From Cyanidioschyzon merolae (lineage: Eukaryota): a stretch of DNA of 64,000 bases. Made by a program: the position numbers and the translations under genes. Below are positions 1 to 20,870 of this stretch, one piece after another. Position 1 is the stretch's first letter. Each line of letters starts with the position of its first letter. The notes beneath the pieces were generated by a model, which ran no database searches, was not told the origin of the DNA, and saw only the letters and a list, made by a program, of their open reading frames with translations. Location: NCBI GenBank assembly GCA_000091205.1, contig AP006483.2; one strand, 5' to 3'.

Positions 1-22
1 CCCCCCATTTCCCCCCATATCC
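1..22. repeat. Telomere-like motif: CCCCCCATT TCCCCCCAT ATCC (reverse complement AATGGGGGG-type)
   Basis: Read directly at window start. The motif matches the AATGGGGGG telomeric repeat I recall for Cyanidioschyzon-type red algae. Only about 2 units are present, followed by T-rich low-complexity DNA to about 1.1 kb. Confidence 0.4.
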
Positions 23-3240: not shown

Positions 3241-3275
3241 CATTCATTCATTCGTTCGTTCGTTCATTCATTCGT
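3241..3275. repeat. (CATT/CGTT)n microsatellite
   Basis: cattcattcattcgttcgttcgttcattcattcg. Confidence 0.9.
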
Positions 3276-3374: not shown

Positions 3375-6125
3375 TCAAGCAGAAACTGAAGCTGAACCCG
3401 AAACCGATGTTGACGCACTCGCAGACACCGCCGCAGAAGCTGTCGCAGACACCGTCGCAGAGGGTGTCGCTGTCGCAGCCACGGGACTCGGAGTCGGTGT
3501 TGAACTAATCACGACACACTGGTTGTTGATGCACTCCTCGTCAGCGCGGCAGCAACGCATCTTGTTCACAAGGTTATCCGAAGGGATCAGGTACGTCCCG
3601 CATTGCTTCGTAGGGTCCTTGCACACACAAAATGACGGCAGCAGCACCTGTTGTTGTTGCTGCTGTTGTTGCAATTGTTGCTGCTGTTGCAGGTTATTGT
3701 TGTTGCTGAACGGGATGTACGTGCAGTTCTGCGTCTCGGCGTCGCAGCACTCGGGGCCGCATACAGTATAGCTCGAGTTCGATACGTTGCTAGTGGTGCC
3801 GCTCAGCGAGTTCGACACAAACCCGTAGGTCTGGCACACGTACTCGGTAACCGGCTGGAAGCACTCGTTGCCGAGCCCCAGGCAGCAACCCGCCTCCAGA
3901 CACTGCTGCGGCGCGTAGCTCGTGCGCTGCGTCCCGTGCTGCTCTCCGTACAGGAGCGTGTTCAGCAGACGCACAAACTGGTTGTTGTTGATGTTATTGT
4001 TCAGCTGCTGGTTCTGATTCACCGCGTTCGTGCACGGCTGGCGCTCAAACTCACCCACCGCGCACGTCTTCTCGGGCTGGAAGCAGTACGGGTTCGACGC
4101 AAAGTCGCTCTGCTGCTTGCCGTTCTGCACCCACTGGTTCTGCGCCTGCGAGTCGTAGCAGCAGCCCTGGGCATAGCACGTAAACTGGTTGATACCCGCG
4201 TTACCACACGGCTGGCGCTGCGCTCCCGGTGATGGGCAGACGGGCACCGGTGCCTGCACCTCCTGCAGCGCTACAGAAGCCTGCGGTGCATGGTTGATGT
4301 CGTAGTAGCACCAGGGCGCGAGGATACCGTTCGCTGTGGGCTGCCAGCAGCATCCCGGTATCGCAGTGCACTCGTCAGGGTAGATATAGCTCCAGCCGCA
4401 GGGGACGCGCTGCGTCACTGGAACAGCGCTGCACGCCGCTGAGACGCTCTTCAGGGTGCACGCGTTGGTCTGGGCGTTGAAGCAGCACCCGACTTGCTCG
4501 CATGCGTCCTGGTTGATGTACTGTCCCGGGGAACCGCAGATCTCATTGGTGCACACCGGAGTAGATGTAGGCGTTGGCGTCAGTGTGAACGTCGAGGTCA
4601 CGGTTGCTGTTATCGTAGATGTAGCCGTAGATGAAGCGGTTACCGAGGATGTTGGGGTCGATGTCGGAGTTGGCGTTGATGTTGGCGTAGGCGTAGGGGT
4701 AGGCGTAAAGAACGTTTCACTCAGTGCGAAAACATCATTGAGATAGCCAATGCTAGTGTTTGAGTAACCCAATCCGCCAAATAGGATCGGATCTGTTCCA
4801 CTGGTGTTCCAGAAAGCTGGTCCTGCTCGACCGCCAGGTACAACACTCGAGCCGGACTCGTTCAAAACTCCATATACTGCTAAAGAATCAACCGCTGAGC
4901 TTCCATTGATCCACGCCCACTGACCAAGTGTGATATCAAATACCCAAAGATCGTTCAAAAAGCCAAAGGATGCGCTCGTATTGGCGACTCCCTCACCGCC
5001 AAACAGCTGTAGATTACCCAAAGGATCCACAAAACTCACGCCTGAGTCTCTTGCACTAGGGTAACTGGTTGGGGAGAAAGCACCGAGAGTTCCATATGAT
5101 CCTGGATTATTAATAGTGGTATTCCCTGTGATAAAAATCCATACGGATTGGCTTATATTGTAGACCCAGAGATCATTCAAGTCCCCTTGCCCTAGTGCTG
5201 TGCTGTTTCCGTAGCCATAGCCACCGAACAACCAGAGATTTCCTTCAAAATCTGTCCACGTATGCGAGAAGCCGCGCGCACCTGGAGCATTTGAGTTGCT
5301 CGCCACGCCAGGTGCACTATAGTTACCAGGCTGGTTAGCAAGTTGTGATCCGCCTCTGTATGCCCATTCGAATGTACCAGGGTTGAATGACCAGAGATCT
5401 GACAAATAATCCAGCTCATTATTTCTCTCACCACCAAACAACCAAAAAAGACCATCCGCGCCCCGCCAGAATGCCGCGCTATCTCGGCCTCCGGGATTGT
5501 AAGAGGGAAGGGAGACGTCTTTCGGCCCGTAAACGGGAGGAGCATCTGTTGTTTCGCTCCCGCTCACCCAGGTCCAGAATCCGCTCTCAGTATCGTATAG
5601 CCACATGTCGTTAAGCGCACCGAAGCTCGAATTCACATCGTAACCGTCGCCACCAAACAACCAGAAATGCTGCTCGTCCGCCTGCCAATATGCGCTTGCA
5701 TAACGACTGCCAGGTATATTGGCTGGGCTGCTTATGCCGAGTGTGCCATATACTCCTGGTTGGCCGGCTTCTGCGGAACCTCCTATCCACGTCCACTCGA
5801 GCGAGGTCAGGTTGAAGCTCCAAAAATCGTTGAGGTAGCTCTCTGATGTATTTCCAATCCCAAAGCCACCGAACATATACACCAAACTCGAACTTCCGAC
5901 CCAGGCTGCTGAAATTTGACGTCCACCAGGAACACTCTCTGGAGACGTCTGGTCCAACGATCCATACTTGCCAGAGTTATCTGTACCCGTCTCTCCACCT
6001 ATCCAGGTCCAGCTAACCGTACTCACAGGCGACAACGCAGCTACAAGCGACACGGAAAACGTCGCCGCCAACAATAGACAAACAGCTACTCCCAGGGCAC
6101 GTACCAGAGAGCGAGCACGAAACAT
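3375..6125 (-). CDS. Secreted Kelch-repeat (galactose-oxidase-type beta-propeller) / Thr-Pro linker / 4x Cys-rich trefoil-like module / polyQ mosaic protein
   Basis: 916-aa ORF. N-terminal hydrophobic signal (MFRARSLVRALGVAVCLLLAATFSVSLVAALS). At least 6 Kelch-like blades with recurring W(L/M)FGG...GxRxxxAxW motifs. A TPTPTPTPTSTPTPTSTPT linker. Four modules with C..C..GCC[FWY]..C spacing (e.g. PCGWSYIYPDECTAIPGCCWQP). A QQQQQLQQQQQQQQ / NNNINNN tract. A Ser/Ala/Thr-rich C-terminus. Confidence 0.7.
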   Translation of the reverse strand: MFRARSLVRALGVAVCLLLAATFSVSLVAALSPVSTVSWTWIGGETGTDNSGKYGSLDQTSPESVPGGRQISAAWVGSSSLVYMFGGFGIGNTSESYLNDFWSFNLTSLEWTWIGGSAEAGQPGVYGTLGISSPANIPGSRYASAYWQADEQHFWLFGGDGYDVNSSFGALNDMWLYDTESGFWTWVSGSETTDAPPVYGPKDVSLPSYNPGGRDSAAFWRGADGLFWLFGGERNNELDYLSDLWSFNPGTFEWAYRGGSQLANQPGNYSAPGVASNSNAPGARGFSHTWTDFEGNLWLFGGYGYGNSTALGQGDLNDLWVYNISQSVWIFITGNTTINNPGSYGTLGAFSPTSYPSARDSGVSFVDPLGNLQLFGGEGVANTSASFGFLNDLWVFDITLGQWAWINGSSAVDSLAVYGVLNESGSSVVPGGRAGPAFWNTSGTDPILFGGLGYSNTSIGYLNDVFALSETFFTPTPTPTPTSTPTPTSTPTSSVTASSTATSTITATVTSTFTLTPTPTSTPVCTNEICGSPGQYINQDACEQVGCCFNAQTNACTLKSVSAACSAVPVTQRVPCGWSYIYPDECTAIPGCCWQPTANGILAPWCYYDINHAPQASVALQEVQAPVPVCPSPGAQRQPCGNAGINQFTCYAQGCCYDSQAQNQWVQNGKQQSDFASNPYCFQPEKTCAVGEFERQPCTNAVNQNQQLNNNINNNQFVRLLNTLLYGEQHGTQRTSYAPQQCLEAGCCLGLGNECFQPVTEYVCQTYGFVSNSLSGTTSNVSNSSYTVCGPECCDAETQNCTYIPFSNNNNLQQQQQLQQQQQQQQVLLPSFCVCKDPTKQCGTYLIPSDNLVNKMRCCRADEECINNQCVVISSTPTPSPVAATATPSATVSATASAAVSASASTSVSGSASVSA
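3648..3715. repeat. (TGY)n / CAG-type coding microsatellite inside Kelch gene (polyQ)
   Basis: tgttgttgttgctgctgttgttgcaattgttgctgctgttgcagg. Confidence 0.9.
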
Positions 6126-8914: not shown

Positions 8915-9973
8915 TTAGACAGGGGCCAAGTAATTCGACTTGAGGCTTCGCCGCCGCAACGCCTGGTCGATCAGATCAAGACTCAGTTCGTAAAGCTGAT
9001 CTGCCTTGTCGATTTCGTATGTTGGTTCAATAACCTGCGGTTTCGTCTTCTCTCGACCTTCCGTATACTTGCCACGCCACTGATAATACGAGCCCGAGTC
9101 CGAGAACTGTCCCTGGGTCGCCACTTCGGCTACGCGGCGGCCGGCCTCATCATTCGGAACGTATTGCCGAGTGATGTACTTCTGAAGAATCGGGAAGAAT
9201 ACGTAGCGGAACCAGCCACGCTTTTCGCGGAAGAGGTTGCTGTCGGCGACACATCCCGGAAAAATCGCCACAGAGGTCACCCCGTCGCGGCCGTATCGAT
9301 CACTAAGCGCCTTCATTGTCAACACGTTCGCGGCTTTGGCGTCTTTGTAGGCTTTTGTGGGCTCAAACGGGCCACTGTCCACCATGCCCGTCGTCTGCGG
9401 ACCAAGCCCCGCGGCTAGACCAGACAAATCACCGAGACGAGCCTGCGGGGGGATCTTTCCCGGCAACGAATTCGGCGAATGGGTCTGAGTCGTCAGAAAC
9501 ACAATGCGCCCGCGCGATATTTTCAGCTTCGGCAACAGCTCCCGACATAGAAGCAAATGGCTCAGATGGCATACCTGCATGGTTTTCTCGATGCCGTCCA
9601 CCGTGAAACGCGGTTTCTTGTCCCGCGGATGCCATATTGCGGCATTGCAGATCAGGGCATCCAGGTGATCGACGCGCGCCACACTCGATAGCGCTCTCAC
9701 AAACTTCAACACAGAGGCGAAATCAGCCAGATCACAATGCAGCACTGTATAGGCGTCCTTTGGAAGGTTTACGCTGTTTGCTGCGCGCTCCGCCCGGTCG
9801 ACGTCACGACATGCCATGACGATGTGCCAGTTGCCCTTGTTGATCAGAGCGCGAGCTGCATACAGACCAACTCCAGAGCACGCGCCTGTGATCACGGCGA
9901 TCTGCGACTGTTTCGGGCCCATACGAAGATGCAGCATACGATGCCGGCGCGCTACAGGCGAACGCTGCACCAC
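8915..9973 (-). CDS. Light-dependent protochlorophyllide oxidoreductase-like short-chain dehydrogenase (POR family)
   Basis: 352 aa. VITGACSGVGLYAARAL (Rossmann TGxxxGxG). NKGNWHIVMACRDVDRAERAANSV...KDAYTVLHCDLADFASV closely parallels the POR consensus GKWHVIMACRD...KDSYTVMHLDLASLDSV. YKDAKAANVLTMKAL (catalytic YxxxK). The C-terminal FPGCVADSNLFREKRGWFRYVFFPILQKYITRQYVPNDEAGRRVAEV block also matches the POR consensus. Confidence 0.8.
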   Translation of the reverse strand: MVQRSPVARRHRMLHLRMGPKQSQIAVITGACSGVGLYAARALINKGNWHIVMACRDVDRAERAANSVNLPKDAYTVLHCDLADFASVLKFVRALSSVARVDHLDALICNAAIWHPRDKKPRFTVDGIEKTMQVCHLSHLLLCRELLPKLKISRGRIVFLTTQTHSPNSLPGKIPPQARLGDLSGLAAGLGPQTTGMVDSGPFEPTKAYKDAKAANVLTMKALSDRYGRDGVTSVAIFPGCVADSNLFREKRGWFRYVFFPILQKYITRQYVPNDEAGRRVAEVATQGQFSDSGSYYQWRGKYTEGREKTKPQVIEPTYEIDKADQLYELSLDLIDQALRRRSLKSNYLAPV

Positions 9974-19849: not shown

Positions 19850-20870
19850 CGCTATCCAGGGACACGGCATCGATGCGTGCTGCGCATTGATGTCCAATAC
19901 ATACATGAATATACATATTCCTCCCATGTAGTTCGGAGGCTAGACGGCTGTCGCTATCCAGGGATACGGCATCGATGCGTGCTGCGCATTGATGTCCAAT
20001 ACATACATGAATATACATATTCCTCCCATGTATTTCGGAGGCTAGACGGCTGTCGCTATCCAGGGATACGGCATCGATGCGTGCTGCGCATTGATGTCCA
20101 ATACATACATGAATATACATATTCCTCCCATGTATTTCGGAGGCTAGACGGCTGTCGCTATCCAGGGATACGGCATCGATGGGTGCTGCGCATTGATGTC
20201 CAATACATACATGCATATACATATTCCTCCCATGTATTTCGGAGGCTAGACGGCTGTCGCTATCCAGGGACACGGCATCGATGCGTGCTGCGCATTGATG
20301 TCCAATACATACATGAATATACATATTCCTCCCATGTAGTTCGGAGGCTAGACGGCTGTCGCTATCCAGGGATACGGCATCGATGCGTGCTGCGCATTGA
20401 TGTCCAATACATACATGAATATACATATTCCTCCCATGTATTTCGGAGGCTAGACGGCTGTCGCAATCCAGGGATACGGCATCGATGCGTGCTGCGCATT
20501 GATGTCCAATACATACATGAATATACATATTCCTCCCATGTAGTTCGGAGGCTAGACGGCTGTCGCTATCCAGGGATACGGCATCGATGCGTGCTGCGCA
20601 TTGATGTCCAATACATACATGAATATACATATTCCTCCCATGTATTTCGGAGGCTAGACGGCTGTCGCTATCCAGGGATACGGCATCGATGGGTGCTGCG
20701 CATTGATGTCCAATACATACATGAATATACATATTCCTCCCATGTAGTTCGGAGGCTAGACGGCTGTCGCTATCCAGGGATACGGCATCGATGCGTGCTG
20801 CGCATTGATGTCCAATACATACATGAATATACATATTCCTCCCATGTATTTCGGAGGCTAAACGGCCTGT
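19850..20870. repeat. 102-bp minisatellite, about 10 tandem units with two alternating variants
   Basis: Unit cgctatccaggga[c/t]acggcatcgatg[c/g]gtgctgcgcattgatgtccaatacatacatgaatatacatattcctcccatgta[g/t]ttcggaggctagacggctgt. Period 102 counted from 19850, 19952, 20054 and onwards. It lies immediately 5' of the cysE-like start codon (19760). Confidence 0.9.

Follow-up and report, generated by a model that had tools for sequence, protein, structure and literature searches.

A chromosome-end gene and the architecture of its product

The DNA analysed here is a 64,000-nucleotide stretch of the Cyanidioschyzon merolae genome (the window), which opens directly with telomere repeat (Table 1). The telomere unit of C. 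merolae is AATGGGGGG, and sequencing covered no more than about 2.5 copies of it at each chromosome end (PMC1955436). The repeat found at the start of the window is reported in the literature only from Cyanidioschyzon merolae. The first gene from this chromosome end, 3.4 kb in, encodes the protein described below, and the next one is an LPOR-like 'P' gene, which is among those listed for C. merolae chromosome ends. No match was obtained when the window was scanned in full for Rfam families and tRNAs. An open frame of this length would arise by chance with a probability of about 1e-16 (0.96^916, stop codons making up about 4%), and the alignment with the Cyanidiococcus homologue CCYA04G1438 (P0001) runs uninterrupted at 68% identity over 95% of the length, from which we conclude that the gene is free of introns. 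An exact-sequence look-up of the 916-residue protein in the searched collection returned no identical entry.

Table 1. Features of the K+T gene and of the chromosome end in the window.
Feature	Residues	Position (nt)	Strand	Description
Telomere repeat, C-rich strand		1..20	.	CCCCCCATT TCCCCCCAT; sequence read; left chromosome end
K+T gene	1-916	3375..6125	-	ATG start, 916 codons plus stop, no introns; transcription points to the telomere
Signal peptide	1-30	6036..6125	-	predicted cleavage after VAA
Kelch beta-propeller, six-bladed	39-477	4695..6011	-	Pfam matches and six aligned repeats
Thr/Ser/Pro mucin-like stalk (47 residues)	478-524	4554..4694	-	composition
Cys module 1	525-556	4458..4553	-	shortened trefoil-like; C525-x4-C-x11-C-x4-CC-x7-C556
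Cys module 2	565-606	4308..4433	-	canonical P-type (trefoil); C565-x10-C-x9-C-x5-CC-x12-C606
Cys module 3	630-681	4083..4238	-	P-type, 24-residue third loop; C630-x9-C-x9-C-x4-CC-x24-C681
Cys module 4	688-755	3861..4064	-	degenerate trefoil-like; C688-x9-C-x43-C-x4-CC-x6-C755
C-terminal family-specific Cys region	764-870	3516..3836	-	5 Cys (764-801) and 7 Cys (833-870)
Ala/Ser/Val/Thr-rich tail	871-916	3378..3515	-	composition

The N-terminus (MFRARSLVRALGVAVCLLLAATFSVSLVAA|LSP) combines a basic n-region, a hydrophobic stretch and small residues at -3/-1, and Kyte-Doolittle values above 1.5 occur in the whole protein only here, in windows starting at residues 1-19; signal peptides are also annotated for related proteins (PMC9812998). 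The signal peptide, the lack of any other hydrophobic segment and the presence of 15 N-x-S/T sequons, 12 of them in the propeller, together point to an extracellular location. The stalk following the propeller consists of 44% Thr, 18% Ser and 16% Pro, its coding region carries degenerate 6-18-bp DNA repeats (4614-4707), and it is the counterpart of the Thr/Pro/Ala linker described for the K+T family (PMC9812998). Within the C-terminal Cys region lies a Q/N tract of the form N4-L-Q5-L-Q8 (residues 808-826, nt 3648-3704) with CAG/CAA-type repeats at 3648-3691. The Cyanidium homologues lack the tail, in which Ala makes up 33%, Ser 31% and Val and Thr 14% each, and whose coding sequence has 12- and 24-bp DNA repeats at 3419-3470. 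A GPI signal would be recognised by a hydrophobic C-terminal stretch behind a small-residue omega site that orthologues share. An anchor of the GPI or transmembrane type seems unlikely, because no hydropathy window exceeds 1.5 outside the signal peptide and the 15-residue maximum of the tail is 1.09. A preliminary description of this DNA had proposed a single 916-codon frame encoding a signal peptide, a TPTPTPTSTPT hinge, a polyQ/polyN tract and an S/A/T-rich C-terminus, and had named a split of the frame by introns as the finding that would overturn it; all of these elements are present in one unbroken frame, and to read the product as secreted and probably glycosylated is fair.

The same description did not recognise the combination of Kelch and trefoil-like modules from any characterised family, which is wrong for the Cyanidiales. 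In these algae the combination is already known as the subtelomeric K+T ('trefoil factor-like') family with its Thr/Pro/Ala linker, published in papers of 2007, 2023, 2025 and 2026 (PMC1955436, PMC9812998, PMC13353863, PMC12112623), with Nozaki 2007, Cho et al. 2023 (PMC9812998) and a Plant Cell life-cycle paper of 2026 as sources. The gene studied here is one copy of this family, since its architecture, its position at the chromosome end and its terminal-gene homologues at 68% and 50% identity all match. These homologues, CCYA04G1438 from Cyanidiococcus yangmingshanensis and CDCA06G1732 from Cyanidium caldarium, respectively, share the signal peptide, the six-blade Kelch propeller, the Thr/Pro-rich linker and the 36-Cys trefoil region, and the homologues P0001 and P0015 are likewise terminal genes adjoining AATGGGGGG repeats (loci L001 and L002). 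They differ in linker length, in the Q/N tracts, in the Ala/Ser tail and in the insert of module 4, which Cyanidium lacks, and their flanking genes are not syntenic with those of the window. Near-identical variants with 84-97% identity are found in hot-spring metagenomes.

Since subtelomeric regions carry H3K27me3 (PMC9812998), the copy could be silent. A silent or decaying copy having no current function would fit its place beside the telomere, where the chromatin is reportedly rich in this mark (PMC9812998), and its low-complexity Q/N and Ala/Ser expansions, but the 916 codons are intact, conservation extends to the 36 Cys and to all six blade motifs, near-identical variants occur in hot-spring metagenomes, and both transcripts and proteome detections are reported for family members (PMC12112623, PMC13353863), making this reading very improbable.

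The six-bladed propeller and its relatives

The repeat alignment resolves the propeller into exactly six repeats of 70-75 residues, each showing the blade motif W-x-W-x-x-G ... YG ... PG-x-R ... [WL]-x-FGG ... LND-x-W, where at least six blades had been proposed before. Pfam supports the earlier Kelch assignment by scores well above the respective cut-offs (PF24681, 100.9 against 50 bits; Kelch_4, 61.3 against 21.6; Kelch_3, 60.1 against 22; Kelch_6, 43.3 against 25.3). Judged from its repeats, the region is a Kelch beta-propeller with a closable number of blades. It holds 12 N-x-S/T sequons, no Cys, two His and two Lys.

Galactose oxidase and the other AA5 enzymes have seven blades, a Cys-Tyr cross-link and a copper site formed by two His and two Tyr. 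Reading the protein as an enzyme, either a copper-radical oxidase of the galactose/glyoxal oxidase type or a sugar mutarotase of the NanM type, whose trefoil modules would serve as carbohydrate-binding modules, is suggested by names: the matching Pfam families include 'Galactose oxidase, central domain', the domain is called 'identified as galactose oxidase' in PMC9812998, and bacterial relatives are named 'N-acetylneuraminic acid mutarotase' by JGI. These names stem from generic Kelch repeat models. The propeller has six instead of seven blades; without a single Cys it cannot form the Tyr-Cys cofactor, which excludes a copper-radical oxidase; neither of its two His is conserved among four Cyanidiales propellers; and galactose oxidase is absent from the PDB sequence matches (E<=1e-3). 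Galactose oxidase (AA5) is thus ruled out by blade number, Cys and His, and the label 'galactose oxidase' on the K+T propeller is a Pfam family name only, the catalytic residues being missing. The NanM/YjhT sialic-acid mutarotase was rejected by scores far below the cut-offs (TIGR03547, 23.1 against 256.35 bits; NF010730, 19.6 against 416). We regard any enzymatic reading as extremely improbable.

Outside the algae, the propeller is matched by secreted multi-blade bacterial Kelch proteins from Bacteroidota, Acidobacteriota and Planctomycetota MAGs, having a blade of about 72 residues with the same motifs as K+T. They share 33-42% identity with the algal propeller at 187-271 bits per single propeller-length match, a similarity that no solved eukaryotic Kelch protein approaches (KLHDC3, 34.8 bits). 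The very low E-values of the bacterial matches are inflated by repeat number, and the ranking is biased towards many-blade bacterial proteins. The bacterial proteins usually have at least 12 blades, often carry T9SS, Ig-like or FN3 domains and lack trefoil or Hint modules. A bacterial origin of the algal propeller by horizontal gene transfer was considered.

Two genuine trefoil domains within a 36-cysteine region

All 36 Cys of the mature protein lie within the 346 residues from 525 to 870, allowing up to 18 disulfides. Every Cys is invariant across three genera, and the identity of the region to Cyanidium is 57-63%. The P-type framework is C-x9/10-C-x9-C-x4-CC-x10-C with the disulfide connectivity 1-5, 2-4, 3-6. 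Modules 2 and 3 fit this six-Cys framework and modules 1 and 4 are variants of it. The framework is common to modules 2 and 3 and to vertebrate TFF1-3, the P-type domains of GH31 alpha-glucosidases (MGAM, SI, GAA) and ZP1, and so are the motifs R-x-x-CG, GCC[FWY] and PWC[FY].

The whole protein matches Pfam Trefoil (PF00088) with 48.3 bits at a cut-off of 21. The preliminary description had counted four trefoil-like modules, which stands for module 2 (45.5 bits, all six Cys aligning to TFF3) and module 3 (31.8 bits), is borderline for module 1 (21.0 bits, exactly the cut-off, in a partial match to profile positions 12-33 only) and fails for module 4. The latter has no Pfam match at that cut-off as it stands because a 43-residue Asn/Gln-rich insert (residues 699-741) splits it; its halves match separately. 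With the insert removed module 4 still stays under the cut-off (14.8 bits), as do the insert-free Cyanidium versions (12.8-14.1 bits). The last 12 Cys (residues 764-870) have no Pfam or PDB match and are invariant in those rows of alignment A1 that cover them intact.

A reverse profile built from 300 non-Cyanidiales trefoil domains scored module 2 at 46.9 bits, module 3 at 35.2 bits and module 1 at 20.8 bits, compared with 0.7±4.5, 6.5±5.1 and 1.6±3.3 bits, respectively, for controls in which the Cys were fixed and the other residues shuffled. As these shuffles score far lower, the trefoil match exceeds what Cys spacing provides. In the PDB, the profile of alignment A1 matched trefoil structures only (TFF3 at 5.9e-5, PSP and MGAM); local comparisons with human TFF, MGAM and GAA sequences serve only as support for this independent result. 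A profile built solely from the algal modules matched 967 proteins, the named ones including a fungal GH31 as well as P-type proteins of cnidarians and integumentary-mucin-like proteins of reptiles and amphibians. Homologues of the complete Cys region were retrieved only from Cyanidiales and as hot-spring metagenome copies, and a word-indexed homologue search with the single-module alignment A2 gave no candidates.

The trefoil fold has three loops, with one short helix and an antiparallel sheet of two strands. In the AF2 model of module 2 (pLDDT 70.5), positions 21-25 form a helix and positions 30-33 and 43-46 form strands. The top six Foldseek PDB matches of this model are all trefoil domains, which would make the predicted fold similar (TM 0.55-0.61, probabilities up to 0.89), but at E-values of 0.18-2.3 that are not significant. 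For the whole 360-residue Cys region modelled from an 8-sequence alignment the pLDDT of 47 renders the model unusable, its best Foldseek match being TFF3 at E=1.2. The structure prediction that had been proposed as a check thus yielded a helix and hairpin for module 2 and nothing usable for the region as a whole, the proposed Pfam check recovered Trefoil, and no match to another known fold, named beforehand as a possible refutation, was found. We conclude that, of the modules in the 36-Cys region, two are genuine P-type (trefoil) domains and two are degenerate ones, and that the Cys-rich end is specific to the family. The sequences favour common descent or transfer over convergence with the P-type domains of animals, cnidarians and fungal GH31 enzymes, because the match goes well beyond the Cys pattern.

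In TFF1 and TFF3, the Asp/Asn preceding Cys2 is essential for binding the disaccharide GlcNAc-alpha-1,4-Gal, with Asp20 and Trp47 of TFF3 being the binding Asp and the stacking Trp, which precedes Cys6 (PMC7221086). The corresponding residues of modules 1-4 are I, P, P, P before Cys2 and A, W, Y, E before Cys6, leaving the stacking Trp only in module 2; among 555 other trefoil domains the position before Cys2 is D/E/N/Q in 82% and Pro in 2%, and the one before Cys6 is W in 62%. Lectin activity is therefore not transferable by homology, and the carbohydrate-binding or adhesin-like role suggested in the preliminary description is no more than a possibility. A vertebrate-TFF-like lectin for GlcNAc-alpha-1,4-Gal-type glycans, cross-linking a mucin-like coat into an acid shield, along the lines of the convergent-TFF idea raised in PMC13353863, would draw on the genuine P-type domains, on tandem modules supplying the multivalency that TFF cross-linking needs (PMC7221086), on a habitat of pH 0.05-4 (PMC12112623) and on the acid stability of a disulfide-rich fold. 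We nevertheless consider it quite unlikely, given that the essential Asp/Asn is replaced by Ile or Pro in four of four modules, that the Trp is retained in one, that these algae have no known mucin partner, and that the premises 'convergent' and 'vertebrate-only' are weakened by the similarity beyond Cys and by the P-type domains of cnidarians and of a fungal GH31. TFFs are also proteins of 7-12 kDa with one or two domains, whereas the K+T protein fuses four modules to a propeller, does not retain the sugar-binding Asp/Asn and has atypical loop lengths in modules 1 and 4.

A putative wall or surface binding protein and its family

Most likely, the gene product is not an enzyme but a glycosylated protein, stable in acid, that serves for binding or cross-linking outside the cells of the walled diploid stage. 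After secretion, the propeller would be heavily N-glycosylated and the stalk O-glycosylated, giving an acid- and protease-resistant, multivalent binding protein outside the cell. By its disulfide-knotted trefoil array the protein would attach itself to cell-wall or surface-coat glycans or polymers, and the stalk would hold the propeller outward as a second interaction surface. The protein would work mainly in the cell-walled diploid phase, because 13 of the 15 Cz. merolae TFF-like genes are expressed predominantly in walled diploid cells (PMC13353863), figures which are those of the K+T family and may not hold for the present copy. The subtelomeric position may make it easier for the genes to duplicate, to shuffle their domains (K, T, K+T, K+H) and to vary in linker length. 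Taken as a whole, a subtelomeric K+T copy encoding a secreted, non-enzymatic, multivalent wall or surface binder used mainly in the diploid phase is the best explanation, which we hold with modest confidence. Members of the family also respond to nickel stress (PMC12112623), a response that a wall-structural role does not predict and that speaks against it.

A second group of proteins carries a related propeller. The K+Hog protein CCYA03G1141 (P0069) has a signal peptide, a six-blade propeller (57% identity) and a Thr/Pro linker as in K+T, and where K+T has the trefoil array it ends in an autoprocessing Hint module (127 bits). K+Hog proteins were formerly annotated as 'hedgehog protein'. Their genes are also subtelomeric (PMC9812998), with expression mostly in the wall-less haploid cells and not in diploids (PMC13353863). 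This K+Hint paralogue with its identical layout, the multi-copy subtelomeric family with variable linkers (PMC9812998) and the expression bias by life-cycle phase (PMC13353863) would also suit a secreted recognition or signalling protein acting in cell-cell contact, mating or environmental sensing, with the propeller as the active ligand and subtelomeric duplication diversifying its specificities in parallel to the K+Hint (Hog) paralogues. We judge this unlikely: the strong conservation of the Cys region across three genera, with every Cys invariant, is unlike rapid diversification, no receptor is known, and vegetative diploids, not gametes, are where the TFF-like genes are mainly expressed (PMC13353863).

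Beyond the preferred reading as a wall or surface binder, we suggest, as a speculation of low probability, that K+T and K+Hog proteins represent the phase-specific display of one propeller-on-stalk via two interchangeable anchors, the algal P-type modules being true homologues of the animal and fungal ones. In wall-less haploids, self-cleavage would release the Hint/Hog module and put a lipid on the stalk, leaving the propeller membrane-tethered, and in walled diploids the propeller would be held non-covalently at wall glycans by the disulfide-knotted trefoil array. If true, the 'vertebrate-only' view would underestimate the age or the mobility of the P-type domain.

As the sugar-binding residue of the TFFs is not conserved, the ligand of the K+T Cys region is not to be assumed. 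Trefoil domains outside animals are an evolutionary puzzle, and K+T is among the few gene families that have expanded in the very small genomes of Cyanidiales, marking chromosome ends, switching with the life-cycle phase and responding to metal stress.

The Kelch–trefoil gene at the chromosome end

We show that the single ORF noted in the preliminary description encodes a non-catalytic propeller behind a predicted signal peptide, followed by a mucin-like stalk and a Cys-dense array containing P-type domains. A homologue aligning at 68% identity across 95% of the length indicates that the ORF needs no introns, arguing against a split into separate genes. As expected for the proposed signal peptide, the N-terminus MFRARSLVRALGVAVCLLLAATFSVSLVAA/LSP contains a strongly hydrophobic stretch, the sole one in the protein, with three Arg in front of it and small residues at -3/-1 behind it. 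The propeller, described as having at least six blades, consists of exactly six repeats of 70-75 residues (aa 39-477) aligned on W-x-W-x-x-G, YG, PG-x-R, FGG and LND-x-W. Thr makes up 44% of the linker that follows (aa 478-524), with Ser at 18% and Pro at 16%. The mature protein has 36 cysteines, all confined to aa 525-870, and the Gln/Asn tracts and the Ala/Ser/Val/Thr tail were found as described. A whole-protein Pfam scan bore out both anticipated domains, with Kelch families reaching 100.9 bits and Trefoil PF00088 scoring 48.3 bits (cut-off 21).

Features of the chromosome end and of the Kelch–trefoil (K+T) protein; positions are nucleotides of the window unless marked aa
Feature	Position	Strand	Observation
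Telomere repeat	1-20		about two units of the C-rich repeat (CCCCCCATT)
(CATT)8 microsatellite	3241-3273		about 100 bp 3' of the K+T stop codon
K+T ORF	3375-6125	minus	916 codons, ATG start
Propeller-encoding part	4695-6011	minus	
Module 1	aa 525-556		21.0 bits, single-module Pfam scan; partial, exactly at cut-off
Module 2	aa 565-606		45.5 bits, single-module Pfam scan
Module 3	aa 630-681		31.8 bits, single-module Pfam scan
Module 4	aa 688-755		no Pfam match in single-module scan
LPOR-like gene	8915-9973	minus	second gene from telomere; light-dependent protochlorophyllide reductase-like SDR
102-bp tandem repeat	19850-20866		10.0 copies, 97% identity

The window starts with CCCCCCATTTCCCCCCAT, the complement of AATGGGGGG, a telomere repeat reported for Cyanidioschyzon merolae alone, whose assembly holds at most ~2.5 telomere units per end (PMC1955436); the window thus represents the very end of a chromosome, with the K+T gene as its first gene. 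The 3.35 kb between repeat and gene are low in GC (0.465 at 1-2000), show a strong negative AT skew (-0.22) and contain no convincing ORF. The LPOR-like gene scores 308.7 bits against TIGR01289, just below the equivalog cut-off of 331.35, and is possibly a subtelomeric POR copy that has diverged, the 'P' gene of Nozaki 2007. Both 'P' (protochlorophyllide oxidoreductase) and 'T' (trefoil factor) appear in the list of C. merolae chromosome-end genes (PMC1955436). The remaining window carries ordinary intronless eukaryotic genes, e.g. for a mitochondrial carrier, Sec1, Tsr1, Brf1, DnaJ and PPR proteins. The 102-bp repeat lies between genes for serine acetyltransferase and Zn-alcohol dehydrogenase. 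Both of its strands have an open frame (460 and 401 aa), and it would encode a 34-residue unit, SRLASE[IL]HGRNMYIHVCIGHQCAARIDAVSLDSD, whose Pfam matches look spurious.

The domain combination, which the preliminary description did not recognise from characterised families, is real but already in print: among the duplicated subtelomeric families of Cyanidiales, Cho et al. 2023 found exactly this architecture to be the most prevalent, with Kelch joined via a Thr/Pro/Ala linker to trefoil (K+T) or Hint (K+H), and declared its function unassignable (PMC9812998). The feature is a member of this known family, an identification we hold with high confidence. The earlier observation is thus confirmed and its interpretation partly supported. 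The homologues in Cyanidiococcus (L001 10001-12694, chromosome 4 right end, beside Peptidase_A22B and Sec7) and Cyanidium (L002 5222-7831, chromosome 6 left end, beside an ABC transporter) are likewise terminal genes, with telomere repeats 5-6 kb away and unrelated neighbours; position is conserved across genera while synteny is not. The Cyanidiococcus paralogue P0069 (CCYA03G1141) shares the signal peptide, propeller (57% identity) and linker, with a Hint module (127 bits) at its C-terminal end in place of the trefoil array. The Kelch propeller is thus an N-terminal cassette common to proteins whose C-terminal parts are exchangeable. A 2025 study reported nickel-responsive expression of K+T family genes (PMC12112623).

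Propeller relatives and composition

The propeller has been labelled 'galactose oxidase' (PMC9812998), and 'N-acetylneuraminic acid mutarotase' is met as a database label among its relatives; both names stem from generic Kelch models. Galactose oxidase is ruled out by the six blades, the lack of cysteine and two histidines unconserved among the four Cyanidiales propellers compared, making a Cys-Tyr copper-radical site impossible; the enzyme is also absent from the PDB sequence matches of the propeller at E<=1e-3, the best being KLHDC3 (34.8 bits). A NanM/YjhT mutarotase is rejected as well, these models giving 19.6-23.1 bits against cut-offs of 256-416. Outside the algae, the propeller is closest to secreted Kelch proteins of bacteria (33-42% identity, 187-271 bits per propeller-length match), encoded in metagenome-assembled genomes of Holophagales, Chitinophagaceae, Flavobacteriales, Planctomycetota and others; their extreme E-values result from at least 12 blades per protein. 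Sequence similarity suggests horizontal transfer of the propeller from bacteria as a possibility. Among its 447 residues the propeller has only 2 Lys and 2 His and no Cys, and its calculated pI is ~4.05; such a composition could reflect adaptation to an environment of pH 0-4.

P-type domains in the cysteine-rich region

Of the four trefoil-like modules proposed earlier, modules 2 and 3 stand clearly above the Pfam cut-off, module 1 only reaches it and module 4 fails to match. In module 4 the second and third Cys are separated by a 43-residue Asn/Gln-rich insert; without it, or in the Cyanidium versions lacking it, the Trefoil score is only 12.8-14.8 bits. The last two Cys groups (5 and 7 Cys, aa 764-870) match nothing in Pfam or among solved structures. 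All Cys columns are conserved in rows covering them intact (8-sequence alignment of the Cys region), and modules 1-4 from four species share six invariant Cys and the Gly preceding the CC pair (14-sequence alignment).

Searched against the PDB, the algal Cys-region profile matched only trefoil-containing chains (TFF3 at 5.9e-5, porcine spasmolytic polypeptide, MGAM, sucrase-isomaltase, TFF1), with all six Cys of module 2 aligned to TFF3. The 14-sequence module profile found 967 proteins at E<=1e-3 among 1.84 billion representatives, the named top matches coming from cnidarians ('P-type domain-containing' proteins), snake and newt (integumentary-mucin-like proteins) and the fungus Piromyces (a GH31 glycoside hydrolase). 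The remark that TFFs outside Cyanidiophyceae occur in vertebrates only (PMC13353863) is therefore too narrow for the trefoil domain as such. In the reverse direction, a profile of 300 trefoil domains taken from the non-Cyanidiales proteins matched by the algal profile scored modules 2, 3 and 1 at 46.9, 35.2 and 20.8 bits, collapsing to 0.7±4.5, 6.5±5.1 and 1.6±3.3 bits when Cys were fixed and other residues shuffled, showing that the similarity goes beyond cysteine spacing. The AF2 model of module 2 (pLDDT 70.5) contains the expected short helix and hairpin, and its best six Foldseek matches in the PDB are trefoil domains (TFF1, ZP1, PSP, GAA; TM 0.55-0.61), with E-values non-significant for so short a domain. 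We read modules 2 and 3 as genuine P-type domains and modules 1 and 4 as degenerate derivatives.

Several unnamed metagenome proteins (P0136, P0134, P0140 and others) contain 4-7 tandem P-type domains, P0136 having long third loops and Ser/Thr-rich spacers like algal module 3 and the linker. P0129, from a JGI 1.6-kb contig, combines C2 and Ribosomal_L39 domains with a match to the trefoil region's C-terminal half (90% identity) and is probably a chimeric assembly or fused gene call, not a real architecture.

Proposed role and anchoring

The architecture suggests a secreted protein, its propeller N-glycosylated at 12 sequons and its stalk O-glycosylated, that would act in extracellular binding or cross-linking at very low pH: the putatively disulfide-knotted array may attach to wall or coat glycans, the stalk holding the propeller out as a second interaction surface. 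The binding residues argue against a TFF mechanism simply carried over. In TFF1 and TFF3, the Asp/Asn preceding the second Cys holds GlcNAc (PMC7221086); modules 1-4 all have Ile or Pro there, against D/E/N/Q in 82% of 555 other trefoil domains, and module 2 alone keeps the stacking Trp. Any glycan specificity is thus likely different from that of TFF. We put the extracellular binding or cross-linking mechanism forward tentatively, at somewhat below even odds, while identity and mechanism taken together appear slightly favoured.

A role mainly in the walled diploid stage would be consistent with a 2026 Plant Cell paper on Cz. merolae, in which 13 of 15 TFF-like genes are mainly expressed in cell-walled diploids and Hog genes mostly in haploid cells (PMC13353863). 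Given this opposite expression and the signal peptide, propeller and linker shared with P0069, we speculate that K+Hog and K+T could be alternative anchoring modes of one propeller, which would be held by lipid attachment in wall-less cells (K+Hog) and by glycan binding in walled cells (K+T).
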